Part shown: positions 16,749 to 47,450 of the stretch, one piece after another
How positions within the stretch are numbered: position 1 is the first letter of the stretch
Layout: every line of letters starts with the position of its first letter
Assembly: GCA_963718175.1 (NCBI GenBank)
Contig: CAVQYM010000014.1
Coordinates: 104,283-168,282, forward strand
From: an uncultured Acidobacteriota bacterium
GTDB lineage: Bacteria > Acidobacteriota > Terriglobia > UBA7540
Direction of reading: 5' to 3'
DNA: 64,000 nt
Position numbers and translations under genes: made by a program
Notes under the pieces: generated by a model
Told to the model about the DNA's origin: nothing
What the model saw: only the letters and a program-made list of their open reading frames with translations
Database searches by the model: none

Positions 16749-17708
16749 TCACTCCTTCCCGGAAAGGAGGAAGGCGATTGGACCGTAGAGGTTCCCGAGG
16801 AAGAACGGAATTCGTGGAACCTTAAGGTTCGTTGCGGCCAACGCTTCGGCCGCGGGTCGCCGCCGCAGGCGCGATGCGATGTAACGCAATATCTCCCGTC
16901 GCAGGGAGGGTTCTTGCAGGAAGTACTTGGTAAGGATGGCCGTGTGCGCGCAACCCGATTGGATAGCCCACCGGCGCACCGCGCGCCTTTCCGTGGAGTG
17001 ACGGTGAAGAATCCGAGCCGCAGGCTCGACAACGATCCTGGTGCTACCCAGCAAGATCCTCAGCAGAAGATCGGGTTCTTCACCGGAGCCGATGCGAGTT
17101 CCCCGGCCCAAGCGGGTATCGAAGTAACCGAAACGGTCGAAAGCCTCACGCCGAATTGCCATGTTGGCGTTGCCCACCAAGGCCGGGCGCATGGGGAAAG
17201 AGTTCTTTCTGGAATTCCCATTCACGGTTCGTTGCGATTCCGGGAACTGGGCGCGGTGAAGAAAATCGAAGGCTTGGCTGACCGGGTCGCGGAGGGTTTG
17301 GGCGAAGATGCTTCCCACGACCGCAAGAACTTGGGGGTCACGGAAAGGAGCCAGCAGGAGCGGAAGCCAGTTCGGATCGGCTACGGAATCATCGTCGAGG
17401 AATGCCATGATGTTCCCCGCTGCCGCGAGGATTCCGGCATTGCGTGCCCGACTGACCCCGCGTTGGGGCTCCGTGACAAGCCTTGCGTCGTGGCGCCGGG
17501 CGACTTCCTCAACGGCTGCGAGGTAGGGACCATTGTTGACAACGATGATTTCTGCAACTGCGGCCCGGAAAGGCCGCAGGGATTTCAGGCATTCCTCCAG
17601 ATCTGTCATGCGGTCGACAGTGCAAACGATGATGCTTGTCTGTTTCAGCAATTCGCCCAGGACTTCCATCGCCTCTTCCTGTGAAGGGTACCAGACTTTG
17701 CGTGGCAC
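16749..17708 (-). CDS. Glycosyltransferase family 2
   Basis: GT-A motifs: SIIVCTVDR, IIVVNNG, FLDDDSVADPNW (DxD). Confidence 0.8.
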   Translation of the reverse strand: MPRKVWYPSQEEAMEVLGELLKQTSIIVCTVDRMTDLEECLKSLRPFRAAVAEIIVVNNGPYLAAVEEVARRHDARLVTEPQRGVSRARNAGILAAAGNIMAFLDDDSVADPNWLPLLLAPFRDPQVLAVVGSIFAQTLRDPVSQAFDFLHRAQFPESQRTVNGNSRKNSFPMRPALVGNANMAIRREAFDRFGYFDTRLGRGTRIGSGEEPDLLLRILLGSTRIVVEPAARILHRHSTERRAVRRWAIQSGCAHTAILTKYFLQEPSLRREILRYIASRLRRRPAAEALAATNLKVPRIPFFLGNLYGPIAFLLSGKE

Positions 17709-17786
17709 CGAATCTTGTCTAACCGGATGGATCAGATTTCCGGAAAGGCAAAGACTTCAATGCTCGTTGTGATCACCCGGCGGGAC

Positions 17787-18863
17787 TCACTTCCGGGTCT
17801 CGTTCAGGAGTTCATCGTAAAGCTGAGTGAAGCCCCCGGTCATCTGCGCGGCACTGAAATGATCGCGAACATGGGCATACCCCGCTGCTCCCATGCTGTG
17901 GCGCATCTCGGGTTTCGGGAGCAGGAGGCGAAGCCTGGAAGCCAAGGCATCGGCATCGCGGGGCGGGACCAGCCAACCCGTTTTTGCATCTTCAATCAGC
18001 TCCGGGACGCCGCCCACCGAGGTGGCGACCACCGGCAAGCCTGCTGCCATGGCATCCAGCGCGGCGATCGGGAAACCCTCCTCGAGGGAAGGCATCACGA
18101 AGACATCCCAGCGAGGAAGAACGGATTTGGGGTCGTCGATCCATCCCAGGAACTCAACATGTCCCTCGAGGCCAGAGTGCGCGACCGCCTCTTCCAGTTT
18201 CCGGCGTTGCGGCCCCGACCCGGCAATCTCCACGCGAAGACCGGGGAATTCGCGCCGCAGCGCGCTTGCCGCGCTGAGCAAGTACTCGATCCCTTTCAGT
18301 TCCACCAGTCGCCCTGCCGTTCCGAGGATGATCTCCGACGTGGTGCGATGGGGAAGGGCAGGAGGGTCGCCAGGGGGGACGGTCACGCCGGCATAAATCA
18401 CCCGCACCGGTCCATCGATGACTCGACTCGCCACCGCTTGAGAGACCGCGACGACTGCATCTGCGTCCCGGGCAGAGAAGTAGACTGGCGTGAGGCCGCG
18501 CGGCTCGAGAATCCGGCCGTGCAGATGCCTGATAATCCTGGCTTGCGTGGCGGCGCGCGCGAGCCGGCAGACAGACCTCCCTCCGAAGTGAAGATGGACG
18601 ATCGCAAATTTCTGGTTGCGCAGGCTGCGCCAGAACCTCCAGGCTCCCACAGGATCTCGCGCCCCGCGCCACCAGTCGAGAGCGCGCGACTGCACGCCAG
18701 CCTGCTCAAGCATGCCTACCAGGGGACCCGCCCCAGCCAGAAACCAGGCATGGATGCGGTATCGTTCGGGATCGAGCCCCTCCGCGAGGACGCGCACAAT
18801 GCGGGCCATACCCGTACCCTCGGGCTGTGCCGTGCCAAGAATATGGAGTACCTGGTGAGCCAT
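17787..18863 (-). CDS. Glycosyltransferase family 4 (GT-B fold)
   Basis: C-terminal GT4 signature PSLEEGFPIAALDAMAAGLPVVATSVGGVPELIED. Confidence 0.85.
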   Translation of the reverse strand: MAHQVLHILGTAQPEGTGMARIVRVLAEGLDPERYRIHAWFLAGAGPLVGMLEQAGVQSRALDWWRGARDPVGAWRFWRSLRNQKFAIVHLHFGGRSVCRLARAATQARIIRHLHGRILEPRGLTPVYFSARDADAVVAVSQAVASRVIDGPVRVIYAGVTVPPGDPPALPHRTTSEIILGTAGRLVELKGIEYLLSAASALRREFPGLRVEIAGSGPQRRKLEEAVAHSGLEGHVEFLGWIDDPKSVLPRWDVFVMPSLEEGFPIAALDAMAAGLPVVATSVGGVPELIEDAKTGWLVPPRDADALASRLRLLLPKPEMRHSMGAAGYAHVRDHFSAAQMTGGFTQLYDELLNETRK

Positions 18864-18920: not shown

Positions 18921-20483
18921 TCAATGTGGCGGAGTTTCAGGCCGAAAAACGAAGTCGGCGTCCTCGCAATGGAAGTTGCGGTCGAGCCGGTAATTCTGCT
19001 CGATGGCATGCGCAACCGAGTTTGGCCATATACCCTGATCGGTTCGGTTCCTGAGTTCTTCCAAGTCCCGGCCCAGAACGACCAGGTCGATTTTATGCGA
19101 GCGAAGAAGATCAACGATTTTGGTGTCGGGCCAGCCTTCGTCAACTACCATGCGCGTCCAGATCCATGGATCGAGCACCGGCAACGATTTTCCCGCCATC
19201 ACCACGGCGCCGGGATTTTCGGAGAGGATAAGCCCGCCAGGGTAATCCTTCACGTATTCGTAAGCCTGCCCACACTCGGACAACACATTCATTGGATCCG
19301 GGGTCGGCCGGTGAAGATTGAGAACCACCATCGCGGCCAGTAGCGCAGGCATCAGCGTGGAAACGGCGCTCCGAAGATCGGATTGGGTTCGCAAATAGCT
19401 ATAGGCCACTCCCGCACAACAGCAGAGCACCGCCTGCCATTCCAGGAAATAGTAGGATGCCGATGCTGACTTCACCACGCCGAGTGCCATCAGAAAAGAG
19501 GTGCCGAGATAGATGAGAGGGAGGGAAAGTTCAGGACGAGCCCGCACGTAAAACGCAAGCGCCAGGGCCAAGACAACCAGGAGATAGTCGGCGGCGAGCT
19601 GGTTGTGCAGCAGGGAGATCGCGGGTGACAGATCGTAGGGTCGAGCGGCGTTTATCCAGAATGCGCCGAAGGCAAACCAGCCGCCGGTTGCGCGTTGAGC
19701 CCAGAGGAACGCCAGACCCCAGAGCGCCAAGCTACCCGCGGCAAACCGCGTAGCTTTCACTCCCTCTCTTCTGAAAAGCATGTAGAGGAAACACGCAAGC
19801 GGCGCCGCAAGGAAGGTAATCTTGCAGAAAAGTGCGGTCACAAAGAAAGGCACGCCGAGATACCATCGGCGGGATCTCGCGAATAGGTATAGGCCGGTCA
19901 GCGAGAAGGCGAGACCGATCCAGTCGGCGCGAAACTGGGGTAACCACGTCGTTAACAGGGGGCGTGATAGGTAGAGCAGGCCAAATCCCATGCTGACGTG
20001 CGGTGCGCCGCCCCAATGACGCACCAGAAGTGCAATGAGTACCGCACACCAGATGCCTAAGAGCGCAGTCACAATCCTGGGAGCGGTGAAGCTGACGCCA
20101 AAGAGTCTCACGCACAGACCCGCGAGATAGTAAGGCAGCGGGCCAAAGGGATTGGTGACGTAAGGGAACTCGGTCGCCGGCGGATAGGCGGACAACCCGT
20201 GAGCCACGCGGACGCCTACGCCCAACACGGGCCCTTCATCGAAATCCAATTCGTAAGGGAGTGGCACCGCCCGGACAGCAGTGAGGAGGGTAATCAGGCA
20301 TCCCAAGCCCGCCGCCCATAAGAACAGGATTTCGACTTTTTCAAAGAGTACGCGGCTTCTCGGGATAAACATCTCCTCGGTTCCGCACTGAAGTAACGGG
20401 CAAGGGGAATCACCTGGGTATCGCGGGCATTGGGCGCAATACTTTACCCTCGATTCCGGCCCCGGCGCCCATACTACCGGCAT
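18921..20483 (-). CDS. GT-C-like multi-pass membrane glycosyltransferase candidate (paralog family C)
   Basis: Long hydrophobic ORF with acidic first-loop motif YELDFDEGPVLG..PYVTNPFGPLPYY, parallel to DDDEG..PYFVNPYPPLFHY in 43523-45193. C-terminal soluble domain present. True start may be the ATG at 20372. Confidence 0.65.
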   Translation of the reverse strand: MPVVWAPGPESRVKYCAQCPRYPGDSPCPLLQCGTEEMFIPRSRVLFEKVEILFLWAAGLGCLITLLTAVRAVPLPYELDFDEGPVLGVGVRVAHGLSAYPPATEFPYVTNPFGPLPYYLAGLCVRLFGVSFTAPRIVTALLGIWCAVLIALLVRHWGGAPHVSMGFGLLYLSRPLLTTWLPQFRADWIGLAFSLTGLYLFARSRRWYLGVPFFVTALFCKITFLAAPLACFLYMLFRREGVKATRFAAGSLALWGLAFLWAQRATGGWFAFGAFWINAARPYDLSPAISLLHNQLAADYLLVVLALALAFYVRARPELSLPLIYLGTSFLMALGVVKSASASYYFLEWQAVLCCCAGVAYSYLRTQSDLRSAVSTLMPALLAAMVVLNLHRPTPDPMNVLSECGQAYEYVKDYPGGLILSENPGAVVMAGKSLPVLDPWIWTRMVVDEGWPDTKIVDLLRSHKIDLVVLGRDLEELRNRTDQGIWPNSVAHAIEQNYRLDRNFHCEDADFVFRPETPPH

Positions 20484-20562: not shown

Positions 20563-21753
20563 TTACCCCAATCTGAATCCAAAGAGGCTTCGGAAAGATA
20601 CCACGTCTGCTGCTGCCATCAGGGCCGATAGGGCTGCCGCCACCCATAGCACGCGCCGGTCACGCGGGATTCTATCCCGTAGCGAAAACAGGAGAATCGG
20701 CAGAACCGGAATTACAAACCTCGGAAAAAACCGAATGATTCCGCCGTAGTTGTACGAAAGGAAAAAGAGCAGATACAGCGAGGTAAACAAGGCCTCGGGG
20801 TGATAGTCGGCCAAAACCCTGTTCCAACTACGTGGCAACCAGACCGCCACCGCCCCGGCCAGCGCTATGATCAACCATGCTACGAACCAGACCAGCCTCC
20901 ACCAGCGAAGGTCGCCATGAAGACCTGCGAGAAAACCCGGAACCATGGCGCCGAAAGGGTAGGTGATCGGCCATCCATTGGATCCCCAGTCGTCTTTGTA
21001 GGCGATGAAACTGGCGAAAGGAGTGCCCATCACCATCCGTACAGGTATGCAGTAGAGAACTCCCACGGCAAGTCCAACCAGGGTAATCGTTGCCAGTTGC
21101 CGGTAACTCCTTCGCCGAGCCAGGACGGCCGCGAAGCTTACCAGAGCAAACACTCCAACCGGCCGCACTGTTGTGCTCAGCGCGGCCAGCAAGGCGGCCA
21201 GGTTCCACCGGCCGGAGCGTGCCAGCAGAAAAGACGCAAAGAGCAAGCACATAAACAACGGTTCACTTCCCGCTCCCAGCGCGCGTTGAATCCACTCGAA
21301 GTTCACCACGACGAAGGTGGCGGCAACCCAGCCCCCGTACAGTCGGCGCACCAGAACACACACGCCCACCGATGCGAGAAACGATATAATTACCGCCGCC
21401 ATTAATCCGGGAATGGAACACAGCTTGGATAACCCCGCAATGACGTACGGGTACCCCCAGAAGAATTGCGCGGATTCTCCACCAGGAAAGCGCCATTGTC
21501 GAATCGTGTTCGCCACGTCCACATAGAACTGCGCATCGAAATGCGGCGCTGCCAGCGTCTCCCAACCACCTACTTTGTAGATGGTCCCAAGGTATATAGC
21601 TGACTCCATGAAGAGAATCAGGAGGATTTCAAGCAGAGAAGACTCGGCGCGGTCGGGGGCAGTGGCGGCATCGAGCGTGCCGGCGGGCATGACTCGGAAC
21701 CAGGATTTCCATTTGGAGTTCATGAGAACGTATATGAGTCCTTCCTCCGGCAT
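20563..21753 (-). CDS. Multi-pass membrane protein, GT-C-like candidate (paralog family A)
   Basis: 396-aa hydrophobic ORF. Long blocks are shared with 38166-39323 (RLYGGWVAA.F...N..WIQ...GSEPLFMCLL.ASFL.AR..RW..AALLA.LSTTVRP.GVFAL). Confidence 0.7.
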   Translation of the reverse strand: MPEEGLIYVLMNSKWKSWFRVMPAGTLDAATAPDRAESSLLEILLILFMESAIYLGTIYKVGGWETLAAPHFDAQFYVDVANTIRQWRFPGGESAQFFWGYPYVIAGLSKLCSIPGLMAAVIISFLASVGVCVLVRRLYGGWVAATFVVVNFEWIQRALGAGSEPLFMCLLFASFLLARSGRWNLAALLAALSTTVRPVGVFALVSFAAVLARRRSYRQLATITLVGLAVGVLYCIPVRMVMGTPFASFIAYKDDWGSNGWPITYPFGAMVPGFLAGLHGDLRWWRLVWFVAWLIIALAGAVAVWLPRSWNRVLADYHPEALFTSLYLLFFLSYNYGGIIRFFPRFVIPVLPILLFSLRDRIPRDRRVLWVAAALSALMAAADVVSFRSLFGFRLG

Positions 21754-21822: not shown

Positions 21823-22986
21823 TTAATGTAAGAGCATGTGAAACACCGCGCGCACATTCAGAGCACTCATGGCGCTTAATAAGCCGGCAACCACACTCAC
21901 TGGCAAAATAACCCATCCTTTGAGGAGACGCAACCGCAGATCCATGACGCTCTGGGGAATGATGGGTATGGAAAAGCGCGGATACTCTCGATACGCCCAG
22001 GTGGAATTGTAACTAACACAGAATGCCGCGAAGAGGAGGAAGAAAGATGACTCCACCTGTCCAGCGACATCGGCAAATGCTTTGCGCCGGCGTTTCCATA
22101 ATGTTACGAGGCCGAAGATTGTCAGCGCCACGTAAAAACCATTCTTGAGATGGTACGTCCATGGCCACCCACCCGTCAGGGCCTCGCGCAGGAGAGGGTA
22201 AAAGGGCAGCGTAATCGGCGAAGCGCTGTACCAGTCATCAGCGTAACCGTTAACCGGGGCCAAAGGATCTTTTGCGGCAAAGATGATCGGTGTGAGATAC
22301 AGTGCTCCCAGAAAACCAGCCATCAGCGCAGACTTCAGCAGGTCTCGCCATCGGCGGTGCCAGAGGAGAATTGCCCCGAGCGCGACGAGTAGGAATATCC
22401 CGGTCGGACGCGTCCATACCGCCAAAGCCGCACACGTCACGGCGCCCAGGGTATGTTCTTTCCTCCACAGCCATAGGGACGCAAAGAGAAAAACGACAAA
22501 GATCGACTCACAGCCACCCAGGCAAATTCGTTGTGTATAGGCGACATTCATAAAGGCAAAGAGCGTCGCGACTCGCCAACCCCATAGTCGGCCGCAAAAA
22601 TACAGGCCAAGAGCACCGCAGGCCACGGTGAGGAGCGGGAGACATCGCGCCACCGGCAAGGAGGTAAGCTTGGACACGATCGCCACGCAATACCCGGTGC
22701 CGCGGTAAAGATAACGAACGTTTTGCAAATCGGGCCCGGAGAACCGCCCCTCCAGAGTGGCTTGAGCAATGGTGAGATAGCCCGCGTTATCGCCGTGATT
22801 GCGGCTCATGTCCCAGAAGTTGTGAACCCTGGTAACAGCCACAATGAAGGTCACACAACAAAGTACGTAGCTCGTAAAGGCGGTGAGAGCGGATAACTCA
22901 TTCGGACGAAGGTCAGCTCGCGCCAGAGTTGCTCCATTCTGGATCGGACCTTTCGATTCAGGCGCAACATCTGAATTCTGGGGCAT
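21823..22986 (-). CDS. Multi-pass membrane protein, distant member of paralog family A
   Basis: 387-aa hydrophobic ORF with the same block order as family A (GWRVATLFAFMNVAYTQ...ESIFVVFLFASLWLWRK...AVWTRPTGIFLLVALG). Confidence 0.65.
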   Translation of the reverse strand: MPQNSDVAPESKGPIQNGATLARADLRPNELSALTAFTSYVLCCVTFIVAVTRVHNFWDMSRNHGDNAGYLTIAQATLEGRFSGPDLQNVRYLYRGTGYCVAIVSKLTSLPVARCLPLLTVACGALGLYFCGRLWGWRVATLFAFMNVAYTQRICLGGCESIFVVFLFASLWLWRKEHTLGAVTCAALAVWTRPTGIFLLVALGAILLWHRRWRDLLKSALMAGFLGALYLTPIIFAAKDPLAPVNGYADDWYSASPITLPFYPLLREALTGGWPWTYHLKNGFYVALTIFGLVTLWKRRRKAFADVAGQVESSFFLLFAAFCVSYNSTWAYREYPRFSIPIIPQSVMDLRLRLLKGWVILPVSVVAGLLSAMSALNVRAVFHMLLH

Positions 22987-23043: not shown

Positions 23044-24825
23044 TTAGCTATCGGGCCGGATTCCTGGAGCAGCAGCACAACGCTCGACAGTCAGCGGTTC
23101 GTGTACCGGAGGCCGTCCCGGCGTGCGGTAGGCAAGCGAAATAGCACTGCGGTTCGTGTAGACCACGTCTGTACAAGAGAGTGAAATCTCCACGGGCGGC
23201 GCATCGGGTCCTACTGTGAATCGATACAAGGGCCCCCGCCCTCTTAAATCCTCCAATGTGTAAATTACCGGACGCGGAGCATAGTAAGACGGAAGGCGCG
23301 AGTTCACGACGTAGATCACGGCATTCGCGGGCAAAATACGGTTTAGAGCGCGAAAGTCCTCTGTAAACGCGACGAACTTGTGCAGGAAGGAGTCACGGCT
23401 TGTAATCCCCAAATCAACCTTGAGGAAGGGCCTTGCGTAGTAGCCCTGCACGGCCAGCCAGGGAAGACACATCGCGAATAGAACCATCCACCCGTGAGCG
23501 ATGAGGCGCGCTCCGAGGCGGGATGGCCACACTACCCAGGCACCGAGGACCAACACGGCATATTGAAGTCCGCCCAGGAATCGGAATTCGTGCGGCAGCA
23601 GCCAGGCCATGAGAATTGCTTGGCCACAAACGAGTCCGAAAAGGACCTTAAAAACCCGTTCGCGCTTCCAGGCCGTGAAGGCTACGACCCCAAAGGCGGC
23701 GACCACTCCCAGCGAAACAGAGGGAGCCAGCCAGACCAGGAGCGGCATCCAGCCTGTCCGATTTGTGTTCACCGAATCGGCGAGTTCGGCGATAACATCC
23801 GGCCCGAAATAGTGCGAATGAAACATGGACGCAGTGGCAAGGCCAAACGGCGATCCGCACTGCATGGTGGTCCACAGGATGATCGGGCCGTAAAACGCTG
23901 CCCATACACCGCCTGCGATCCCGGCCGCTTTCCTCCAGCCCATACTAGCCGCTGCCCGGTGGACACCGATCAACGTGAACACCGCAGAAAGGGGCAGAAT
24001 TGAGATCTTGGTGGAAGCGGCCGCATAAGCGCTCAGGCAAACGAGGACCAATCTGGTTTGCGCCTTCATCTCACCGGTTAGGCCTTCAGGAAGCAAGGCA
24101 AGAAGAAACGCCGTGACCGTCGCCAGATCTCCGAGGGCGTGCGGCCCACTCGTAACGTGCCAGACAGTGGGGTAAAGGCCAACGGCAGAGATCGCCCCCG
24201 TCATCCATCCGGCCGAGGTGCTGCCGGTCAGGTCCGACGCAACACCGGCGATAAGAAGAACCAGCGCTGCGCCCAGTCCCCAACTGACTACGTTTCCGGC
24301 TTCGGGAAATCCAACCGCATGGGCGGCACTGAGCCCCAACTGAAAGCCACACTGCGGGAAGATTGCTGCTTCATAGGGTTCACGATAGAGATATAGCCTA
24401 CCATCTTCCATGACGCGTTTGGGTACCAACATGTGGTAATGCAGTTCGTCAATTTTGGTGGAGGGCGCGACCGCGATCAAAAGGTTGACTGTGACCACCG
24501 CAGTGATCACGGCCATGAACCACCAGTCAGCACGGCGCGTTGTCCTCAGGCCAGGAGCAAAGGCCAGCCTCTTCGTAAGGCCGAATAGACCGCAGCAGCC
24601 AATCACTGTCGCCCCGACGCCGACCAGTTTCACCGCGCCGACCCCTCCCCCCAAGAACAGGACCAGCATCACGGCCAGATCGATGATAGCCACACCACTT
24701 ATGAGGGATGTTGGGAGGCGCCAGCGATGGGGAACCGATCCCAGGAGATGCGTAGCGCCCAGGCCTATGCCGCCGGCGGCGATCAGGCCGAGCAGGCCCC
24801 CGACTAAGGTCTTAACCGACTCCAT
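23044..24825 (-). CDS. Large multi-pass membrane protein, GT-C-like candidate
   Basis: 593-aa ORF that is hydrophobic nearly throughout. Acidic loop motif STKIDELHYHMLVPKR and a ~120-aa C-terminal soluble domain. First gene of the minus-strand gene set. Confidence 0.65.
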   Translation of the reverse strand: MESVKTLVGGLLGLIAAGGIGLGATHLLGSVPHRWRLPTSLISGVAIIDLAVMLVLFLGGGVGAVKLVGVGATVIGCCGLFGLTKRLAFAPGLRTTRRADWWFMAVITAVVTVNLLIAVAPSTKIDELHYHMLVPKRVMEDGRLYLYREPYEAAIFPQCGFQLGLSAAHAVGFPEAGNVVSWGLGAALVLLIAGVASDLTGSTSAGWMTGAISAVGLYPTVWHVTSGPHALGDLATVTAFLLALLPEGLTGEMKAQTRLVLVCLSAYAAASTKISILPLSAVFTLIGVHRAAASMGWRKAAGIAGGVWAAFYGPIILWTTMQCGSPFGLATASMFHSHYFGPDVIAELADSVNTNRTGWMPLLVWLAPSVSLGVVAAFGVVAFTAWKRERVFKVLFGLVCGQAILMAWLLPHEFRFLGGLQYAVLVLGAWVVWPSRLGARLIAHGWMVLFAMCLPWLAVQGYYARPFLKVDLGITSRDSFLHKFVAFTEDFRALNRILPANAVIYVVNSRLPSYYAPRPVIYTLEDLRGRGPLYRFTVGPDAPPVEISLSCTDVVYTNRSAISLAYRTPGRPPVHEPLTVERCAAAPGIRPDS

Positions 24826-25667
24826 GAAATCGTCCCTTCCTCCAGAAAGGCTGGAGCCCGAGGCACGTGCTCCTCAGAACGACCTGCTTGCACTCAAAGC
24901 GAAGGGAGGGGAACCATCGCGAATGGAAAAATGGACCCCTCGTTCGCCCTTCAGCCGAGCTCCGATCCCTAGGAAACCTCCCGGGAATTGGAAGAGCGCC
25001 GGCTTCATGTGGGAACAGGCAAATCGCGTGCTTCATCTGCCTCGCCGAATGAGTATAGACCAAGGCAACCCAAAGTTCGAGCCGCGGAGGCCCGGGAGGT
25101 GCGCGACATAGAAGTTGGGGATTTCTCTTGAGCTCTCATGGCGGTCCCTGCGCGGGGTACGTCAGGCGTGATGCGAGACAGGCGCTGGCGGAGGAAGTAC
25201 CGCGGGCGTCTCGCCCACCGTGGCATGGAGGTCCCGCGCATGTGCCAGCATGGCCAGGCCGGCCCCGCCCGCGAGTTTGTACATTTTGAAGCGCGGAATT
25301 CGTTCCCCAGCGCGCGAATAGTGGCAAAAAGGCTGTCAGTTCCCGTCAAATACGTGCGATTTTGTGTAAATGACGTGTCATTTTGCAGAAAATGTCCGTT
25401 TCTTGGTCGGGCAACTTGTCATCTTTTTGTTTGTTTTCATATACATAACGGCTTCGTTCGTATAAAAAAAGAATTCTTTTTCTTAGAACCCTCGCGGGCC
25501 ACCATGCAACCTCCCCTGCGTCGGATAAATTGTCTCGAGTTTTCCGCGTCGGTCTGGGCATTTATCCTTTCCTCCAGGTGACCCGGTGGGGCTGCCGCGT
25601 TCCCCACCCGTCCCTACCACTAGGCTAAACCAGCGCCCAGGTGAGTCGTCAAGTGAAATCTGGGCGG

Positions 25668-25727
25668 TTTTCCTACCGGTAGGAAAAAATCTTAACCATG
25701 AAGCGCATTTTTCCTGCCGGTAGGAAA
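25668..25727. promoter_or_regulatory. Pair of palindromic candidate operator sites (TTCCTNCCGGTAGGAA)
   Basis: Perfect 20-bp palindrome TTTTCCTACCGGTAGGAAAA at 25668-25687. A one-mismatch copy TTTTTCCTGCCGGTAGGAAA lies at 25708-25727, with centres 41 bp apart. Confidence 0.45.
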
Positions 25728-26876: not shown

Positions 26877-26882
26877 GTTTCC

Positions 26883-39323: not shown

Positions 39324-39648
39324 GTCGACGAAAGCCCGCACTGGCACAACGCCCAGACGGAGACAATCTGAGGGTAACGAAACCTTTCCGGCAACCCAAC
39401 ACCCAGGCTCCAGTTTCGAGGGCATTGGGAGCACTCGGCTTGAAGAATCCTCAGCACATTCTCCGTAACTTGGCGGCGACCTGACCTAGAGGAGATGCAA
39501 ACTTTGCCAATGTCATTATGCCGTGGCACTTGGCTTCCCAGCATCGTCGCTCTTTTCGATTGATCCATTGGCTTTTCAGTTGCCCGGGAAATATCGTTTG
39601 AGGAAGGCTTCAGGGGTGCCGCACGTGCCGTTGTTTCGTAGAAATATT

Positions 39649-41274
39649 ATGAAGGACATGGGGCTGCTTTGGCAGCGGCTGGCAAGCGGATGTCTGCCAG
39701 TGCTGTTGCTCGGTACATTCGTTTTTCTCTACCTCAGCCTCTTCCGCCTGCCCTTCACTCCAGTTTTCGGAGATGGCGGCGAGAATCTCTTTCTGCTCAA
39801 CGCAACGCGCATGTTGGACGGGGAGATAATCTACCGGAATTTTTTCGAATTGACCGCCCCGGGGATCACGGTGTTTAACCTCGGTCTCTTCAAGTTGTTC
39901 GGTGCCCGTGCTTGGGTTTCTAACGTGTCGCTTATTGTTGTAGGACTCAGCCTGACATGTCTGATTGTAACCATCTCGCGCAAAGTTCTCACCGGGGGAG
40001 CCGCCTTTCTTCCGGGTATGCTGTTCCTCACGTTCTTATTTGGCCCCGTGCTCGACAATACTCATCAATGGTATTCTGCGCTCGCCGAACTGGGCGCCGT
40101 CGCGGTGATCATCGAGAAAAGAACTCGGGCGCGGCTTCTGGCGGCAGGGTCTCTCTGTGGTCTGGCGTCCTTCTTCACGCAAACTCAGGGAGTCTTTGCC
40201 CTTGTGGGCCTCGGTATCTTCCTATTGTGGGAGAGGCGCAAAGCCGGCGAGGGGTGGTGGGAGATTTCCAGGCGCTCTGGATATTTGTTCGTGTCATTTG
40301 TGGCGACGGTTATCGCTACTGACTCGTATTTTGTCTGGAAAGCTGGTCTGAACCGATTTCTGTATTGCGTTGTTGGGTTCGTTTTCAAGTATTACCGCTA
40401 TGCTCGTGCGCAGAACTCCCTTGCCGTCGCCGTGCTTGAAATCCCGCAAATGACCCAATGGGATCAATTGCCCGCTTTGGGGTTATATCTCTTTATTCAT
40501 GGGCTTTTGCCGCTGGTATATGTTCTGTTCTGGATGCGATATCGGCGGCAGGCACTGGAACCGGAACATGGCAACCGCCTCATGTTGTTGAACATCATGG
40601 GCTTGCTGCTCTTCGCAAGCATTGCGCCCTCGCCCTCCACATATAGAATGTGCGCCATTGCTCCATTAGGCCTGATCCTTTTGGTCTGGCTGATTCGCGG
40701 ACGAGACAGGCTGCTTCGGGTTCTGAGCTTTGTCCTTTGCGTCGTTGCCTTATTTGTCGCCATTGCTTCTCCCTTGCGAATTCAAATTCAGAAGATGCCG
40801 TGCTTGAGCCTCCCTCGCGGTCGTATGGCGCTGGACCTGATGAGTTACGAAAAGCTTCTTTGGCTGTCCAAGAATACCGTTCCCGGCGAATACTTGTTCG
40901 CTGCCGACGGTGTAGGAATTCTCTTTCCGCTGGCTCTTCGTAATCCTGCGGAGGTGCCGTTTGTTAAGACCAATGACTATACGCGTCCCGAGCACGTTCG
41001 CAACAGTATTGCGGCTTTGGAAAGGGAGCACGTGCGTTTTGTCTTATCTGACCCGGAATTAGACCTGGGGGGCAACTATCTTCTGAAGGGCGAGCCCCAT
41101 GAGCCACCGCGGGGTTACTTGCGCTCGTTCTTTCACATCATTAAAGCGTTTTTGTTGGGCGACTATCAATCGGGGCACGACAACCTAGGGCCGCTCCGCA
41201 ACTACCTGCATTCGTGCTATCACCTCGCCAAAACACTTCCTGACAATACTGAGGTTTGGGAAAGAAACAAATAG
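39649..41274 (+). CDS. GT-C-like membrane glycosyltransferase candidate (paralog family B, third copy)
   Basis: Same block order as 32948 and 34541 (GDGGENLFLLNATRMLDGEIIYRNFFELTAPG ... FFTQTQGVFA ... NYLHSCYHLAKTLPDNTEVWERN). ATG at 39649 preferred over the upstream start at 39523. Confidence 0.7.
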   Translation: MKDMGLLWQRLASGCLPVLLLGTFVFLYLSLFRLPFTPVFGDGGENLFLLNATRMLDGEIIYRNFFELTAPGITVFNLGLFKLFGARAWVSNVSLIVVGLSLTCLIVTISRKVLTGGAAFLPGMLFLTFLFGPVLDNTHQWYSALAELGAVAVIIEKRTRARLLAAGSLCGLASFFTQTQGVFALVGLGIFLLWERRKAGEGWWEISRRSGYLFVSFVATVIATDSYFVWKAGLNRFLYCVVGFVFKYYRYARAQNSLAVAVLEIPQMTQWDQLPALGLYLFIHGLLPLVYVLFWMRYRRQALEPEHGNRLMLLNIMGLLLFASIAPSPSTYRMCAIAPLGLILLVWLIRGRDRLLRVLSFVLCVVALFVAIASPLRIQIQKMPCLSLPRGRMALDLMSYEKLLWLSKNTVPGEYLFAADGVGILFPLALRNPAEVPFVKTNDYTRPEHVRNSIAALEREHVRFVLSDPELDLGGNYLLKGEPHEPPRGYLRSFFHIIKAFLLGDYQSGHDNLGPLRNYLHSCYHLAKTLPDNTEVWERNK

Positions 41275-41546: not shown

Positions 41547-43499
41547 CTAGACGCCCTGCCAAACCAACTTCGCAAGAGCTTCCACGAACGCCTTTGCAGC
41601 GGCATCCTCCAGGGAGTCTGTCGACTCCAGGGGTCCTCCCAGTGATTTCATGACATAGGAGTGAAAAAGCCCTCTGGACACAACGCGCGTTTTCTGTTGG
41701 AAGGATTTGCTCCGCTCGTCCCAGGCGAGCAGATAGATTTCTATGGGCCCATCCCGAGGCCCTGCCAATTCGGCGCCGACGATCCGTCGGGTCTTCTCCC
41801 ACCATTGGGCGCCAGGACAGCAAGACATATCAGGGTGTTCAATAATGCGCGCTCTGGAATAGAGATCGGTGGGGGCGAATGGCGTTTCCACAGCATAGGG
41901 CAGCATTTCGCCCCAGCCTGAGGCAATCAAATGGCTCTCCGCCGGCCAAAGCACGACCAAACTATCTTGGGGCACTTCCTTCAGGTTTGTAATTAATTGC
42001 CCCGCCATGGTTTCAGACATCTCTCCGGTGCGTGCCCACGCAGCATTCTCCCGCCACAACCCCAAGGCCGAAATGCCGACAAGAAACACCATGCCTGAGA
42101 ACCGCCCATATCCAACTCCCCTCGCAGCCGTACGAAAAGGTGGCATTGCTAGAAAAGCTGTGGCGATGCACGGTCCGACCGCCGGGAGGTACAAATGGTA
42201 TGGGGCATGCATAACTGCCAGAAGGGGGAGATTGGAAATCCCATACCATACTAGGCCAAAATAAAGAACAATGGCGAGGGACCTCCGGCATTCCGAGCGG
42301 CGCCTGAAAAGGGTGAGCGCCCAAATCCCCAGCAAACCCAAGATGAACCCGAGAGCTAAGGCTGGAAAAGGAAATAAGAACTCTCGAAGGTTAAAGGCCT
42401 GGAGATCCCAAACGTGTGTCAACAAATGGCTAAAATGAAGCCAGAACCCTGCCGGGGTTGACACCGCCTCGTGCACATTGCTGCCCCAGCTATTCTCATG
42501 AAGAAAACTGGTGAACACGTATCGTCGCAATTCTAGATAAGCCAGGAGCAACACGCCGAAAGGGGCATACACCAGAATGAGTCGCCGCCAAAGTTTCCTT
42601 TTCGCCGGACTGTCGCGGGAAGGATTCACATCCTCTCCCCCCACTATTCGGAAGAGATCGTAAGTAACGAGCATGATGGGCAGGGTGACGGCACCCTCTT
42701 TGCTCAATAGGGCCGCGGCGAACGCCACCATGGATATCATAAGATATCGCATCAAGCCAGAGGCGCGAAAACGCATAAAGCACAAGAAGGCAGAAAGGTA
42801 AAGTAAAGTAGGTAAAAACTCGGCTACGGAACCCACGATCATGGAAATGGTCTGAGAATGAACCGGCTGCACCGCATAGAGCAACCCAGCCAAGCCCGCT
42901 CGGCAGGAATCTCCATCGGCGAAGCTCTTTGCCACTAGGAAGACCAGGAAAGATACGATGATATGCAGGAGGAGACCACTGAGGTGGTATCCTAACGGGT
43001 GAAGGCCCCAAAGGCGAAAACCGATCATATAGAACACGCTATAGAATGGGCGAAGTTCTTGCCTGGGCTCACCCCAGAGAACCTCCGCGATATCCGCATG
43101 GAACAATTGCAAGAATTGATTCAGTGACAAATTACGAAAAACGTGGAGATAGCCAAAGTCATCATTCAAAAAGTAGGTCTGGAGCGCCGGTAGGCACGCA
43201 ACCAGGCCGACGAGCGAAATAATTACCATGGGCCTGAGATGCCCCGGCAACGGATTCCAGGAAGGCGTCGAAGCGGGGATAAATTTGATTTCCCAGTGCT
43301 CCAGGACCCACAGCAACGCACCAATGGCCAGGGCAATGAGGAGGACCCAGCCCTCGCCCTCCCTGAAGAGGAGGAAGGAAGCCGCAATTCCTAAGCTCGA
43401 CACAAAAAGCAGGAAGGCGCCCGCAACCCAGCGGTCAGACCAGTAAGAGCCTGCGCCCAAAGGCGCAAGTTCCCGTTCCTCCCCTTTACCCATTCCCAC
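41547..43499 (-). CDS. Large GT-C-like membrane protein with C-terminal soluble domain
   Basis: 650-aa ORF. The N-terminal ~450 aa is multi-helix with loop motif TYFLNDDFGYLHVF. The C-terminal ~190 aa is soluble. Confidence 0.65.
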   Translation of the reverse strand: MGMGKGEERELAPLGAGSYWSDRWVAGAFLLFVSSLGIAASFLLFREGEGWVLLIALAIGALLWVLEHWEIKFIPASTPSWNPLPGHLRPMVIISLVGLVACLPALQTYFLNDDFGYLHVFRNLSLNQFLQLFHADIAEVLWGEPRQELRPFYSVFYMIGFRLWGLHPLGYHLSGLLLHIIVSFLVFLVAKSFADGDSCRAGLAGLLYAVQPVHSQTISMIVGSVAEFLPTLLYLSAFLCFMRFRASGLMRYLMISMVAFAAALLSKEGAVTLPIMLVTYDLFRIVGGEDVNPSRDSPAKRKLWRRLILVYAPFGVLLLAYLELRRYVFTSFLHENSWGSNVHEAVSTPAGFWLHFSHLLTHVWDLQAFNLREFLFPFPALALGFILGLLGIWALTLFRRRSECRRSLAIVLYFGLVWYGISNLPLLAVMHAPYHLYLPAVGPCIATAFLAMPPFRTAARGVGYGRFSGMVFLVGISALGLWRENAAWARTGEMSETMAGQLITNLKEVPQDSLVVLWPAESHLIASGWGEMLPYAVETPFAPTDLYSRARIIEHPDMSCCPGAQWWEKTRRIVGAELAGPRDGPIEIYLLAWDERSKSFQQKTRVVSRGLFHSYVMKSLGGPLESTDSLEDAAAKAFVEALAKLVWQGV

Positions 43500-43522
43500 A
43501 TCCTTCTAGCATTGCAACCATC

Positions 43523-45193
43523 TTAGGGGACGCTCTGCTGGGGCCGCGGCCTATAGATGACGTAATAACCGTCTGCGACGTTTGCGTCGCCGAGTTGCTC
43601 GGTAAGCGCGTAATGTTTCTCGATGGCTCCAACCATTTCATCTGTCCAAAAGTCGTTATCCAGAGTTCTCATAATGATTACGCCAAACTTCTGGGAGGAG
43701 ATCATCTCCACAAAGTCGGACTGGTCCCACACACCCGTTCTGGCAATAAACCACAGCATCCCGGGCTCAATCGGAATCTCCTTGTGAGCCTTCATCGTGA
43801 GGACCATGTTTTCGCAAAGCACCGGGCCAGGTGTTTCTTCAACGATCTTCAAAGCCGCCGCAGTACTCGAAAACCTCACGTCTTGGATATGTCTTTCACC
43901 CGGCGTAAGACGAAACACGCTGTCGATGCGGCGGAGTGAATCCGTGAACCCCGTGACCGCCGTCAGGAAAAGCAACAGGAACACCGCAGTTCCCCCCAGT
44001 GTGTATTGAGAAGACGGCCGCCAGCCTCGCAACACTCGCACAAAGAGCAACCCCGCCAAAGGGCAGCAGGCAAGGTTCCACTCCAGAAAATAATGGTTGC
44101 CCGAGCCCACTTTCCCATAAGTAGCCGAGGTCATAAGTGCCAGGACAAGTTGCGTGCCGAGGATCAGCAGCCCTCTGCGGTAAGGGCTTGACTGCACGCC
44201 CGCCCTCAGCCATCGGAGGAAGGTGCGGGGCTTGCTTGAAATCCCGTGGTTAAGGTAGGGAAGTAGCGCCAGGCAGGCCATTGCGGCAAGCGGGATCATG
44301 CGGATGAAGTTCTCTTGCATGCCCAACATCAAGTGGGTGATCGAGAAGGGTTGTCGAGCATTATAAAGGAACAAATGACGCAAAACCTCTCCGTGGGTCT
44401 CCCACGCGAGACAGCCCAAAATTCCCAGGCCGAGCGCAACCGAGAACCCGAAGAGCCGCAAGGCCCTTCGCCATTGGATGAGAGCAGTCGCGGCGAGGCA
44501 CGCCAACGGAGCCGCAATCATCGTTTGCTTCGTGAACACTCCCAAGACGAATAATCCAAAGGCCGCATATTGGTACTGAGATTTCGCCATGTAGCGTAGG
44601 AACACGTAGACACCCAGAAAGGTGATCAGTACCGCCAGGAGGTCGACACCCATTTCCGGGATATAGTTGCTCAGGGTGTCCAAGCGAAAGCAAAGCAAAG
44701 CCGACAGCAATGCGCCGCTCCCTCGAATCCCCCTGGGGATGCGTTGTGGGGAAGCACGGAAGACCAGGAGGCCAAAGATCATGCTGATCCCGAGGGCGGA
44801 TAAAACGCAGACGAACCGCCCCCCTACCAAATAGTCGCCGGTAATCCAGGCGGCAATTCGTGCCACATAATGGAAAAGGGGTGGATAAGGATTCACAAAA
44901 TAGGGATACTGTTGGATCGGGTGATAGAAAACCCGAAGGTTGGTAACATGTGCGATCCCCCACCACACGGCCCCCTCGTCGTCATCCCATCCGAACGGAT
45001 AGAAGATTTTTTGGAATGACGTGAGAGTGAAGGTAACGCCACCCAGCAGGAGCAGGGAGAAAAGCGTCCAGAGATAGACTTGGCGCAGATGCTCGCCCAG
45101 AGTCGGCAGCACCGCTCTTCCTGTGGGTACCAACCCGTCCTGACGGCCCTCAGCTTTCCCCGTTGCTTGCCCAGAGGAGGAACTTAGTGGCAT
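43523..45193 (-). CDS. GT-C-like membrane glycosyltransferase candidate (paralog family C)
   Basis: First-loop motif FGWDDDEGAVWWG...YPYFVNPYPPLFHY followed by many helices. The C-terminal soluble domain resembles that of 18921-20483. Confidence 0.65.
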   Translation of the reverse strand: MPLSSSSGQATGKAEGRQDGLVPTGRAVLPTLGEHLRQVYLWTLFSLLLLGGVTFTLTSFQKIFYPFGWDDDEGAVWWGIAHVTNLRVFYHPIQQYPYFVNPYPPLFHYVARIAAWITGDYLVGGRFVCVLSALGISMIFGLLVFRASPQRIPRGIRGSGALLSALLCFRLDTLSNYIPEMGVDLLAVLITFLGVYVFLRYMAKSQYQYAAFGLFVLGVFTKQTMIAAPLACLAATALIQWRRALRLFGFSVALGLGILGCLAWETHGEVLRHLFLYNARQPFSITHLMLGMQENFIRMIPLAAMACLALLPYLNHGISSKPRTFLRWLRAGVQSSPYRRGLLILGTQLVLALMTSATYGKVGSGNHYFLEWNLACCPLAGLLFVRVLRGWRPSSQYTLGGTAVFLLLFLTAVTGFTDSLRRIDSVFRLTPGERHIQDVRFSSTAAALKIVEETPGPVLCENMVLTMKAHKEIPIEPGMLWFIARTGVWDQSDFVEMISSQKFGVIIMRTLDNDFWTDEMVGAIEKHYALTEQLGDANVADGYYVIYRPRPQQSVP

Positions 45194-45303: not shown

Positions 45304-45392
45304 GGTAGTGTCCTAATTTGAACGTAGCGCCGCCATCTTGGCGGCTCAATGCCGGCTGGAAGCCGGCGCTACATCGAAATTAGGACACTACC
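45304..45392. mobile_element. 89-bp MITE-like element with 16-bp perfect terminal inverted repeats and 8-bp target-site duplication
   Basis: TIRs GGTAGTGTCCTAATTT (45304-45319) and AAATTAGGACACTACC (45377-45392). Flanked by direct AGGGCAAC at 45296-45303 and 45393-45400. The interior holds two GC hairpins with GTAGCG/CGCTAC ends. Confidence 0.7.
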
Positions 45393-45401
45393 AGGGCAAC
45401 G

Positions 45402-47450
45402 CTAGTGGTAAGGCAGGCTTCGCAGGAGTTCCTCATCCCTCGCGGCTGGCCGCTGGGTTGACGTAAAAGCGCGCCGTGGAAAAAAGGCCTGTGAAGTCCC
45501 GATGGGAATCCCCGGTGGGTGGGCGGAACTCGAATCGAACTGAGCACTCAATCGGTCAGCGTTGGCCATGGCGCCGCCAGATCCTCCGAATGCAGAAAGG
45601 TACTCCGGCCTTCTCCAAGGGCGGAGCGATTCGGCAACGGCCGCACGTAGCTGGATTTGCAGGTTCTTCAGGCGCTCCTGATTTTCCGGGGATTGGGCCA
45701 GATTGAACTTCTCCGCCGGATCGCTCACCCAACGAAAGAGTTCCTCGCTGCCTTGCGCGTAGCGGATATATTGCCATTCGGGAGTGGTCAAGCTAGTTGA
45801 GGCTGGAAACGTCCCTTCTTTCAAAAACTCGGATACTGCAAATTCATCAAAGTCCCCGGGTTCAAATCCTGGCCTCCAAAAACGCTGGAGGCTGGCCCGT
45901 TGAAACGGGGTGTTGTTCATCCCGGCAAATTGTAGGATGGTCTCAAAGATCTCTTGTAATCGAACCAGATGCGGAATTCGAAGACCGGCGGGAATGTTGG
46001 GTCCCCAAATGATGAGAGGGACCCGCAACACCTCCCGGTAAAGGTTAGAACCATGATTGTAAGTGCCGTGCTCGCCGAAGCCCTCACCATGGTCGGATGT
46101 GATGATGACGATGGTGTTTTCCCATCCGGGAAGGCAGGAAAGAGATTCCAAAAGTTCGTTGACCGAGTCATCCAAGAACGCCAGGCAGTTATCGTAGCTG
46201 GTCATCAGGGAATCTTGGTCCTCGGCGGTCAGGTGCGGATGGCTCTTTGCCTCACCCATAGCTGATTCGATCCTCTTGACCCGCCAAGGGGACACGCGAC
46301 CGAAGCGGGAAGCGTGGTGCGCAGGCACAAGATAAGGTGCGTGTACGTCATAGTAGTTGATGAAGAGGTAGAAGGGCCTTGGCGAACGGTGGTGAAACCA
46401 GCGGAGGACGTCGCGGTTGATTTGGCCCGCGTCCCGACGCTCCAAGTCGTCTGGCTGCACATACTCCTGGTAGAAAGGTGGTAGAAACAGGCTGACCAAG
46501 AGCAGGCTTACGAGATTGTGTCGCAACGAGGTGCTATCGTCGTCATAAAACTCAAAACCGTTGCCCATCCCCCAGCCCATCCAGCCATAGACGAGGTTAG
46601 AAGTGAACCCCGCAGTCTCATAGCCCCGTGAACTCAACACCTCGGCGAGCGTCCACCAGCTCGGGTCCAACGGTTCGGCAAAATCGGCGCCGTGCTGATG
46701 AGGGAGCAGACCGGTGAACATCGATGCATGGGAGGGCAGTGTCCAGGGCGAAGCGGCGATGGCATTCTCAAAAACGACCCCCCGCCGCCCCCACTTGTCG
46801 ATGCGGGGGGTGGTCGGGCGAGAATACCCATAGAGAGAAACATGGTCCGCCCGCACCGTGTCGAGCGTAATCAGGATGATGTTGGGTTCGCGGATTTGCC
46901 CTGCGGGTTTAGGCGCAACGTCCGCCCGTCGCAGAGATGGCCTTATGGTATAGGCGCCCACCCCAAGTAGCGATACTGCAAGAACCATGGCGAGCAGGAG
47001 ACGCAAGGTTTTGAGAGGGAGGAGGCGTCCCGCGATGAAAGCACTTGCCCCCACGAGAACAATCCAAGGCCCCTTGGCCAGGATGAAGTGGATTGGGGAT
47101 TTACCCATCAAAGGGTTGACAGCGAAAACCCTTAGGTTGATGGCATTCGCGAGCACCAACATGGCGGCCAGACAGATTCCCACAATGACGGAACCCCCCC
47201 GCCAGATTCGGCTGCCGCGGCTGGCGACGAACAGTCCGGCAAGCAAGCCAAGAAACCCAACGGCCAAACCATCTACCAAGGGACCCAGGAATAAGATGAC
47301 GTAACTGACATCAGGTCGGATGAGAACCGGTGGGGCAGGATGTCGGTAACGATACACCCCCTCGAGGGCGCCCACGAGCAATCCCATCAGAACACCCACG
47401 GCTGTGTATCGGCCGGTCAACGGCATGGAATTGGGTTTATTCTCGGTCAT
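45402..47450 (-). CDS. Membrane-anchored sulfatase-fold (alkaline-phosphatase superfamily) hydrolase/transferase
   Basis: About 5 N-terminal helices, then a sulfatase domain (ILITLDTVRADH, SPWTLPSHASMFTG, ITSDHGEGFGEHG). The nucleophile position reads T-L-P-S-H instead of C/S-x-P-x-R. Start taken at MTENKP (47450). Confidence 0.8.
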   Translation of the reverse strand: MTENKPNSMPLTGRYTAVGVLMGLLVGALEGVYRYRHPAPPVLIRPDVSYVILFLGPLVDGLAVGFLGLLAGLFVASRGSRIWRGGSVIVGICLAAMLVLANAINLRVFAVNPLMGKSPIHFILAKGPWIVLVGASAFIAGRLLPLKTLRLLLAMVLAVSLLGVGAYTIRPSLRRADVAPKPAGQIREPNIILITLDTVRADHVSLYGYSRPTTPRIDKWGRRGVVFENAIAASPWTLPSHASMFTGLLPHQHGADFAEPLDPSWWTLAEVLSSRGYETAGFTSNLVYGWMGWGMGNGFEFYDDDSTSLRHNLVSLLLVSLFLPPFYQEYVQPDDLERRDAGQINRDVLRWFHHRSPRPFYLFINYYDVHAPYLVPAHHASRFGRVSPWRVKRIESAMGEAKSHPHLTAEDQDSLMTSYDNCLAFLDDSVNELLESLSCLPGWENTIVIITSDHGEGFGEHGTYNHGSNLYREVLRVPLIIWGPNIPAGLRIPHLVRLQEIFETILQFAGMNNTPFQRASLQRFWRPGFEPGDFDEFAVSEFLKEGTFPASTSLTTPEWQYIRYAQGSEELFRWVSDPAEKFNLAQSPENQERLKNLQIQLRAAVAESLRPWRRPEYLSAFGGSGGAMANADRLSAQFDSSSAHPPGIPIGTSQAFFPRRAFTSTQRPAARDEELLRSLPYH

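Follow-up and report, generated by a model that had tools for sequence, protein, structure and literature searches.

A Putative Surface-Glycan Locus with Eleven GT-C Glycosyltransferase Candidates in Terriglobia (Acidobacteriota)

Organization of the Locus

The contig CAVQYM010000014.1 of an uncultured Terriglobia bacterium harbors, within a 64-kb stretch (the window), a locus rich in candidate membrane glycosyltransferases (GTs) of the GT-C fold. The list of open reading frames (ORFs) showed 18 closely spaced genes between positions 16749 and 47585, labeled g01 to g18, of which 11 are GT-C candidates. The genes are arranged as a minus-strand block (g06-g05-g04-g03-g02-g01), a plus-strand block (g07–g12), g13 on the minus strand, g14 and g15 on the plus strand, and g16–g18 on the minus strand. 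The coordinates of g15 and g16 follow gene calls on the short-read Logan contig L078, which is 99.97% identical to positions 25906-44523 of the window. The GC fraction of the island was 0.576, compared with 0.608 and 0.595 in its flanks. Eleven long ORFs had been listed in a preliminary description made from the sequence alone; ten of these are real or differ only in the start codon, and the eleventh (36184-38002) is not continuous owing to a frameshift.

All-vs-all BLAST comparison of the eleven proteins revealed two families of three genes each, one pair, and three singletons. Family A comprises g04 (20563..21753, minus strand, 396 amino acids), g05 (21823..22986, minus, 387 amino acids), and g14 (38166..39323, plus, 385 amino acids), with g04 sharing 55% identity with g14 and 28% with g05. 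Family B comprises g11 (32948..34522, plus, 524 amino acids), g12 (34541..36112, plus, 523 amino acids), which shares 58% identity with g11, and the more divergent paralogue g15 (39616..41274, plus, 552 amino acids; 36-37% identity to g11 and g12). The pair consists of g03 (18921..20483, minus, 520 amino acids) and g17 (43523..45193, minus, 556 amino acids), which align over the full length with 24.6% identity (E 5e-22). The singletons are g06 (23044..24825, minus, 593 amino acids), g13 (36184..37873, minus), and g16 (41547..43493, minus, 648 amino acids). Hydropathy analysis showed that all eleven candidates are polytopic, multi-helix membrane proteins, as had been described, in line with the ∼8-13 transmembrane helices expected of GT-C enzymes.

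Predicted Structures and Conserved Acidic Motifs

The AlphaFold model of the family B protein g11 (predicted local distance difference test score, pLDDT, 84; predicted template modeling score, pTM, 0.85) showed a multi-helix membrane part followed by a C-terminal soluble alpha/beta domain. When this model was compared with the PDB using Foldseek, all 12 matches at E ≤ 0.001 were GT-C enzymes, including STT3 (2e-7), ArnT (1e-5, TM-score 0.53), ALG9, and PglB; the top seven were catalytic subunits of oligosaccharyltransferases (OSTs), and AftB, ALG3, and Emb followed at weaker E-values. Similarly, with the model of g06 (pLDDT 88, pTM 0.91), the top 14 PDB matches were all GT-C enzymes, led by ALG12 (4.4e-5) and followed by ALG9 (TM-score 0.47), AglB, DPY19, STT3, and PglB. 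Transporters appeared for g11 and g06 only at E > 0.03 with TM-scores of ∼0.1, and no WaaL, Wzy, or SEDS protein was present in the top 50. By these models, family B and g06 are predicted to have the GT-C fold.

It was considered whether most of the candidates could instead be transporters, Wzy/WaaL-type enzymes, or unrelated membrane proteins, the finding that the preliminary description had named as one that would overturn its proposal. Multi-helix proteins resemble one another in general, and a search with Wzy_C (PF04932)/WaaL gave a sole match, to g11, at the chance level of E 0.033. However, the significant Foldseek matches were exclusively GT-C enzymes and no Pfam transporter or Wzy family was detected among the candidates; none of the eleven looks like such a protein, and this explanation is considered extremely improbable.

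An acidic motif was observed 5-25 residues past a transmembrane helix in all eleven proteins, namely, DFDEG in g03 (residue 80), DDDEG in g17 (WDDDEG at residue 70), KIDELHYH in g06 (residues 124-131), NDDFGY in g16 (residue 110), and GD...YRDFF in family B (GD48 and YRD68FF in g11), while family A carries an invariant D...Y at the same site (D73...Y77 in g04, after the first transmembrane helix). The motifs are invariant or near-invariant in the family alignments, that of g06 being invariant. All motifs quoted in the preliminary description were found in place after a transmembrane helix and conserved, with the difference that g15 reads YRNFF. Three transmembrane helices precede the motif in g16, and four in g06, which also has a strongly basic (Arg/Lys-rich) loop at residues 83-97; owing to this helix count and, in g06, the basic loop, both motifs are predicted to be periplasmic. 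The sidedness of the motifs was assigned solely from transmembrane-helix parity and positive-inside charge.

Profile Relationships Among the Families

Profile comparison with Pfam placed some of the candidates at or near known GT-C families. Against PMT_2 (PF13231; gathering score 26.1 bits), g16 scored 27.0 bits, g17 scored 26.1 bits, exactly at the gathering score, and g03 remained below it with 23.9 bits. The g13 product matched PTPS_related (PF10131; gathering score 26.4 bits) with 31.1 bits, along with a weak C-terminal match to YfhO, and intact g13 homologues carry precomputed PF10131 matches; PTPS_related presumably belongs to the Pfam GT-C clan. The members of families A and B and g06 in the window had no Pfam match even at E up to 10. 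In NCBIfam, g05 matched NF046093 "cell surface glycopolymer formation protein" at 1.8e-7, below the model cutoff, and g11 had no match in either Pfam or NCBIfam.

The relation of family A to GT87 (PF09594; gathering score 25 bits) was analyzed separately. None of g04, g05, and g14 matched this model, while the family A homologues P0003, P0004, and P0065 passed the gathering score with 25.6, 30.1, and 26.5 bits, respectively, over nearly the whole domain, and several homologues carry the JGI name "Gpi18-like mannosyltransferase." Comparison by hhalign of family A with the genuine GT87 proteins found as neighbors in related loci was not significant. Judged from these profiles, family A would be at most an outlying relative of GT87.

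Alignment of profiles linked several of the families to family B. At 93% probability (E 2.6e-7), the family A alignment (A2) could be aligned with A4, a diverse alignment of family B, which placed D73 of family A opposite D48 of family B; for the g03/g17 alignment (A6) and A4, the probability was 92% (E 6.9e-7), and the 445 matched columns extended into the C-terminal domain. The match of g16 to family B was weaker (35% probability, E 3.9e-4). The links of family A and g03/g17 emerged only with the more diverse alignment A4; between narrow family alignments (A against B, g06 against B, A against g06), hhalign gave nothing significant. Likewise, when the A, B, and g06 profiles were run by hmmsearch on the complete set of ORFs in the loci retrieved, none of the families matched another, and profile searches of PDB sequences with alignments A1, A2, A3, A6, A7, and A8 returned nothing. 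By these links, family A and g03/g17 are homologues of family B, the fold of which is supported by structure comparison, and their catalytic-loop Asp residues align with those of family B.

Sequence comparison yields five families in all: A and B, with three genes apiece; the g03/g17 pair, joined more distantly by g16; and g06 and g13, each by itself. Families B and g06 are without a Pfam or NCBIfam model. For family B, 237 homologues were found; among the 120 listed, none had a Pfam domain and any source name was "hypothetical protein." An exhaustive profile search recovered 451 representatives at 50% identity with E ≤ 1e-30 and 4,085 with E ≤ 1e-3, and 9 of 49 distant relatives matched PMT_2 weakly (best 1.2e-6). 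For g06, 168 homologues were found, and none of the 120 listed had a Pfam domain. Independent evidence supports all eleven proteins as GT-C-fold candidates, most strongly family B and g06 and most weakly g03 and g13, where it comes from sequence only. This is in agreement with the preliminary description, which had placed about eleven GT-C enzymes in one envelope-glycan locus: Foldseek supports four genes, profile links support five others, and g13, g16, and g17 have Pfam matches that reach or approach the threshold.

Frameshift in g13

The interval 36184-38002 is divided between two ORFs in different frames, 36698-38359 and 36184-36774, and tblastn with an intact homologue located the frame change at ∼36767-36783. 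Comparison of L078 with window positions 25906-44523 showed four substitutions and one gap, the window having one extra base in a GCGCGC context near 36791. The intact gene encodes a PTPS_related protein of 562 amino acids in L078 and of 564 amino acids in a related metagenome-assembled genome (MAG). Since g13 is intact in both, the frameshift is more likely to be an assembly error or a strain variant. A true pseudogene reflecting long-standing decay was also considered and is disfavored, given the uninterrupted gene in a contig of 99.97% identity.

Accessory Genes of the Locus

Seven further genes accompany the GT-C candidates. The gene g01 (16749..17708, minus strand) encodes a stand-alone GT2 enzyme of 319 amino acids with no transmembrane helix (Pfam Glycos_transf_2, 1.4e-21). 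Its best PDB relative is PglI (1.3e-9), an enzyme acting on an oligosaccharide linked to undecaprenyl diphosphate (Und-PP), and no ArnC or GtrB match was found for it in the PDB. The adjacent g02 (17787..18863, minus) encodes a GT4 enzyme of 358 amino acids with Glycos_transf_1 (1.4e-42) and Glyco_transf_4 domains; every NCBIfam match of g02 was below its cutoff. These two were the only stand-alone GTs in the preliminary description, which is correct as far as it goes; two further GT2 domains, fused to deacetylases, had been overlooked, as had a flippase-methyltransferase fusion and a separate methyltransferase.

The overlooked genes open the plus-strand block. A methyltransferase dependent on S-adenosylmethionine, of 253 amino acids, is encoded by g07 (26115..26876, plus; gene call from L078; Pfam Methyltransf_11/23/12). 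The 783-amino-acid product of g08 (26883..29234, plus), called identically in L078, is a Wzx/MOP-type flippase fused to a C-terminal NodS-like methyltransferase, with Polysacc_synt (6.3e-10, residues 52-329) in a part of ∼12 transmembrane helices and NodS (1.7e-20) at residues 584-727. The g08 homologue in a related MAG has 555 amino acids and is devoid of the methyltransferase domain (L081, 2810-4477). The genes g09 (29248..31032, plus, 594 amino acids; Glycos_transf_2 3e-25, Polysacc_deac_1 6e-23) and g10 (31046..32833, plus, 595 amino acids), which share 68% identity, both encode a GT2 domain fused to a CE4 polysaccharide deacetylase. The Wzx-NodS fusion directly precedes the two GT2-deacetylase fusions, forming a NodB/NodS-like combination; the pairing of a deacetylase with a NodS-like methyltransferase may recall NodB/NodS chemistry.

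In both g09 and g10 the GT2 part is EpsD-like, in g09 over its full length (2e-57, below the cutoff), and its PDB relatives are enzymes of the lipid-linked oligosaccharide (LLO) or polymer type (PglI, TarP, and PcManGT-type), while the deacetylase domains are related to CE4 enzymes of the PgaB/IcaB/HfsH type. DPMS and GtrB matched the GT2 domains weakly and in the N-terminal half only, and no match to ArnC was obtained even though ArnC was in the library. No convincing transmembrane helix was observed in g09 or g10, including the C-terminal helices typical of ArnC/GtrB. A helix that would place the deacetylase in the periplasm was considered and rejected, the hydrophobic stretch being short, proline-rich, and not conserved in g10; g09 is probably cytoplasmic.

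At the other end of the locus, g18 (45402..47585, minus) encodes a membrane-anchored sulfatase-superfamily enzyme of up to 727 amino acids with EptA/LtaS architecture, having about six N-terminal hydrophobic segments, a Sulfatase domain (5.7e-44), and partial phosphoethanolamine-transferase matches, all below cutoff. ORF and Rfam checks revealed no small GtrA-like flippase, for which there is no space, and no riboswitch or other RNA.

The composition of the plus-strand block raises the possibility that g07–g12 form a self-contained transmembrane glycosylation system for an amino sugar, in which the fusions would make and deacetylate a polyprenyl-phosphate-linked N-acetylhexosamine (HexNAc), the NodS-like domain would N-methylate it, the MOP domain would flip it, and family B would transfer it to an envelope acceptor. 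The enzyme pairs ArnC/ArnD, LgmA/LgmC, and FlmF2/NaxD make and deacetylate polyprenyl-phosphate amino-sugar donors in this manner. The gene order (methyltransferase, flippase-methyltransferase, two fusions, and then a pair of family B genes), with all of them closely spaced in the same direction and the order repeated in the related MAG, is as expected of such a unit, and ArnT is a top structural match of family B. In 18 of 76 related loci, a family B gene and a GT2-deacetylase fusion are no more than 10 kb apart, and the fusion is at most two genes away in 14 loci. In GT-C systems, MOP/MATE flippases are known to carry polyprenyl-phosphate-sugar donors (PMC11127046; PMC8035078). However, the GT2 domains of g09 and g10 resemble EpsD, PglI, TarP, and PcManGT rather than ArnC and are devoid of the C-terminal transmembrane helices, and this arrangement is regarded as possible but doubtful.

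Another possibility is that some of the GT-C enzymes, notably family B, take a flipped polyprenyl-diphosphate-linked oligosaccharide as donor and act as an OST, ligase, or polymerase in place of Wzy/WaaL, resulting in en-bloc glycosylation of protein or lipid. The OST subunits at the head of the Foldseek matches of family B, the significant match to PglB, and the C-terminal soluble domain, as in OST enzymes, are compatible with this, as are the presence of Wzx where Wzy/WaaL were not found in the scans and the absence of an undecaprenyl-phosphate-sugar synthase from the window. On the other hand, the TM-scores are only ∼0.5, and the match is just as good to ArnT and ALG9, the donors of which are monophosphate-linked; distant family B relatives match PMT_2, a monophosphate-donor family; and eleven paralogues far exceed the need of one transfer step. 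Such a role is judged rather unlikely.

Conservation and Genomic Context

The nearest relatives are Terriglobia MAGs. The search for synteny that the preliminary description had proposed identified a whole-locus relative in MAG GCA_035314965.1, with the same flanking genes (radical-SAM/hemerythrin on one side, PhyH and Peptidase_M2 on the other). In that MAG, the locus comprises nine GT-C genes and an unfused Wzx, and does not contain g15–g17 or the IS1634 element, three tandem family B genes being found instead of g15; g18 is retained, and the core g01–g14 plus g18 is syntenic. Family B was found in 77 loci of GTDB species genomes, nearly all from Acidobacteriota, often in 2-4 tandem copies; the cultured relative Silvibacterium bohemicum S15 also has a homologue (L063).

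The region between the divergent blocks of the window (24826..26114, ∼1.3 kb) is apparently non-coding, as just short ORFs with low-complexity translations and no Rfam match were found in it, and presumably holds promoter and regulatory sequence. It is unusually long for a compact locus, its counterpart in the related MAG being ∼430 nucleotides (L079, 6497-6930).

In six related loci, a 239-amino-acid GT2 gene directly follows the g17-like gene, and the best PDB relatives of its product are ArnC (8e-12), DPMS, and GtrB. This ArnC/DPMS-like GT2 is located at L008 3898-4617, L013 7579-8298, L017 5415-6134, and L037 8975-9694, and at L051 13556-14296 and L019 17433-18146, where the g17-like gene is on one side of it and the g16-like gene on the other. 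The gap from g17 to g16 is 23 nucleotides in the window, where tblastn recovered no copy of that GT2. Genuine GT87 proteins (458 amino acids, E 1.5e-28; e.g., L065 1739-3115) occur at most two genes away from more distant family B genes in six loci (L030, L038, L042, L047, L058, and L065), another recurrent pairing of GT-C enzymes.

Variation of this kind could be explained if the island consisted of separate decoration modules that can be exchanged, in which every GT-C enzyme has a donor system of its own and different envelope polymers are decorated, with some copies decaying. Gene content differs among close relatives, as the MAG without g15–g17 and without the methyltransferase fusion shows; the module of g17-like gene, ArnC-like GT2, and g16-like gene recurs elsewhere and has lost its GT2 here; and g15 has lost a conserved Asp, g13 is interrupted, and an IS1634 transposase adjoins the locus. 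However, the core g01–g14 and g18 is syntenic between identical flanks and organized in a few tight co-directional blocks, and the g13 frameshift is probably an assembly error. A wholly modular island is considered unlikely; the variable g15–g17 segment suggests that at least a part of it serves modular decoration.

Proposed Function of the Locus

Taken together, the reading that we favor, as somewhat more probable than the contrary, is that of a conserved chromosomal surface-glycan locus of Terriglobia (Acidobacteriota) with eleven GT-C enzymes, in which a lipid-linked glycan put together in the cytoplasm would be flipped and then elaborated on the periplasmic side. At the cytoplasmic face, the GT4 enzyme g02, the GT2 enzyme g01, and the fusions g09 and g10 would extend a polyprenyl-diphosphate-linked oligosaccharide, the fused CE4 domains would de-N-acetylate the HexNAc added, and g07 and the NodS-like domain of g08 would methylate the intermediate. 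The Wzx domain of g08 would then flip the intermediate to the periplasmic face, where the GT-C enzymes would add branches or extensions from polyprenyl-phosphate sugars, with donor synthases encoded outside the window, and the EptA/LtaS-like g18 would add a phospho-substituent. The primer, any polymerase or exporter, and the final acceptor would lie outside the window. Assembly in the cytoplasm is favored because g01, g09, and g10 resemble GT2 enzymes that elongate LLOs or polymers (PglI, EpsD-like) rather than ArnC, and because g09 and g10 have no convincing transmembrane helix. The use of polyprenyl-linked donors on the periplasmic side is inferred by analogy with characterized GT-C enzymes. 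These work outside the membrane with C55-phosphate (C55-P) sugar donors and have a DxD-like motif in one of their extracellular loops, and flippases of the Wzx or MATE type can serve them (PMC8035078; PMC11127046).

Several observations weigh against this reading. For family A, g03, g13, g16, and g17, the GT-C evidence is from profiles, and hhalign gave no significant link of g06 or g13 to the other families (g13 was tried against A4, A7, A3, and A6). At about residue 75, g15 has Asn where D68 is ≥90% conserved in family B, a substitution that may change or abolish its activity, and the g13 gene of this assembly carries a frameshift. No polyprenyl-phosphate sugar synthase of the ArnC/GtrB/DPM1 type was detected in the 64-kb window, either by tblastn with the ArnC-like GT2 of the relatives or among its own enzymes, g01 and g09 not being ArnC-like, and the supply of donors is therefore unaccounted for. 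The scanned window ORFs also contained no priming phosphoglycosyltransferase, Wzy, Wzz/Wza, Wzc, or nucleotide-sugar synthesis genes, which bears out the preliminary description with respect to Wzy, Wzz/Wza, the primer, and nucleotide-sugar synthesis; the missing primer, polymerase, and export genes could be located elsewhere in the genome.

A variant with a periplasmic line resembling the ALG pathway was also considered, in which a flipped, deacetylated, and N-methylated LLO would be extended in successive steps by about ten GT-C enzymes and moved en bloc to protein or lipid by an STT3/PglB-like member of family B; it is quite improbable. By analogy, the eukaryotic and archaeal N-glycan LLO pathway (ALG GTs, flippase, ALG3/9/12/6/8/10, and STT3/AglB) has the same succession of Leloir GTs, a MOP flippase, and many GT-C enzymes, and g06 and family B find their best matches in ALG9, ALG12, STT3, and AglB. 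However, orthology cannot be demonstrated, the TM-scores are only 0.45-0.55, and the resemblance is no more than an analogy.

Comparison with Known Systems

The favored reading, a glycan flipped by Wzx and elaborated by GT-C enzymes in the periplasm, shares features with several known systems. Multi-component systems (GtrABC, CsbB/GtcA/YfhO, GacIJKL, ArnC/ArnT, and GT136) likewise combine a GT-C enzyme having an acidic loop motif, a MOP/Wzx flippase, and a GT-A enzyme in one locus (PMC8035078; PMC11127046). The g17-like genes of the relatives are paired with an ArnC/DPMS-like GT2, as there. In contrast, those systems have one GT-C enzyme per module, whereas eleven lie in 31 kb here, and the window contains neither an ArnC/GtrB synthase nor a GtrA-type flippase. 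Of the components of such a system, the flippase (Polysacc_synt in g08) and GT-C enzymes are present, and a GT-A enzyme making a C55-P-sugar was not found in the window. With respect to the Wzx/Wzy-dependent pathway, only Wzx was found in the scanned ORFs.

In the synthesis of mycobacterial arabinogalactan, lipoarabinomannan, and phosphatidylinositol mannosides (Emb, Aft, PimE/GT87), polyprenyl-phosphate sugars are used outside the membrane by GT-C enzymes of several families to construct a single envelope glycan. AftB and Emb are among the structural matches, and family A borders GT87. The present locus differs in belonging to a diderm acidobacterium and in having Wzx and GT2-deacetylase fusions, in a negligible sequence similarity, as seen from the absence of PDB sequence matches, and in that no genes of the decaprenylphosphoryl-arabinose or -ribose (DPA/DPR) pathway were found. 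The amino-sugar systems of lipid A and lipopolysaccharide (ArnC-ArnD-ArnT, Bordetella LgmABCD, and Francisella FlmF2-NaxD-FlmK) are similar in combining a GT2, a CE4 deacetylase, and an ArnT-like GT-C enzyme with an EptA-like enzyme nearby, a comparison that we assume to hold for the Lgm and Nax systems; here, in contrast, the GT2 domains are not ArnC-like, and GT2 and deacetylase are fused and duplicated. The fold and general mechanism are known; new are the close packing of so many GT-C genes, the presence of unclassified families, and the combination of accessory genes.

With eleven GT-C candidates in 18 genes, much of the complexity of one glycan would be made outside the cytoplasmic membrane. 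Such build-up is well documented in mycobacterial cell walls and eukaryotic N-glycan precursors; to our knowledge, it is known in Gram-negative bacteria only as single-sugar decorations. Acidobacteria belong to the most abundant bacteria in soil, and characterization of their envelope glycans and exopolysaccharides has hardly begun. The preliminary description had regarded such a locus as not described before in this kind of bacterium, which stands in the limited sense that no description of one in Acidobacteria was found in the searchable literature. Family B has more than 4,000 representatives at 50% identity in metagenomes and g06 represents a second family without a model; defining both would improve the annotation of soil metagenomes. 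These families could also seed new CAZy GT families, of which GT136 is a recent case.

Genes Flanking the Locus

On one side, both in the window and in the related MAG, the glycan locus is bordered by a gene (15020-16648, plus strand) that joins a ThiH/HydG-like radical-SAM enzyme to a hemerythrin domain. On the other side, an IS1634-family transposase gene (48773-50374, minus; NCBIfam 4.9e-101) lies between PhyH and Peptidase_M2 and is not present at that position in the syntenic MAG. Peptidase_M2 (51628-53676, minus) is a full-length bacterial homologue of angiotensin-converting enzyme (E 1e-228). Beyond it, a GDSL-lipase gene is present as an inverted duplication at 53752-54578 and 61296-62122, the two copies of 827 nucleotides being 91% complementary and 6.7 kb apart.

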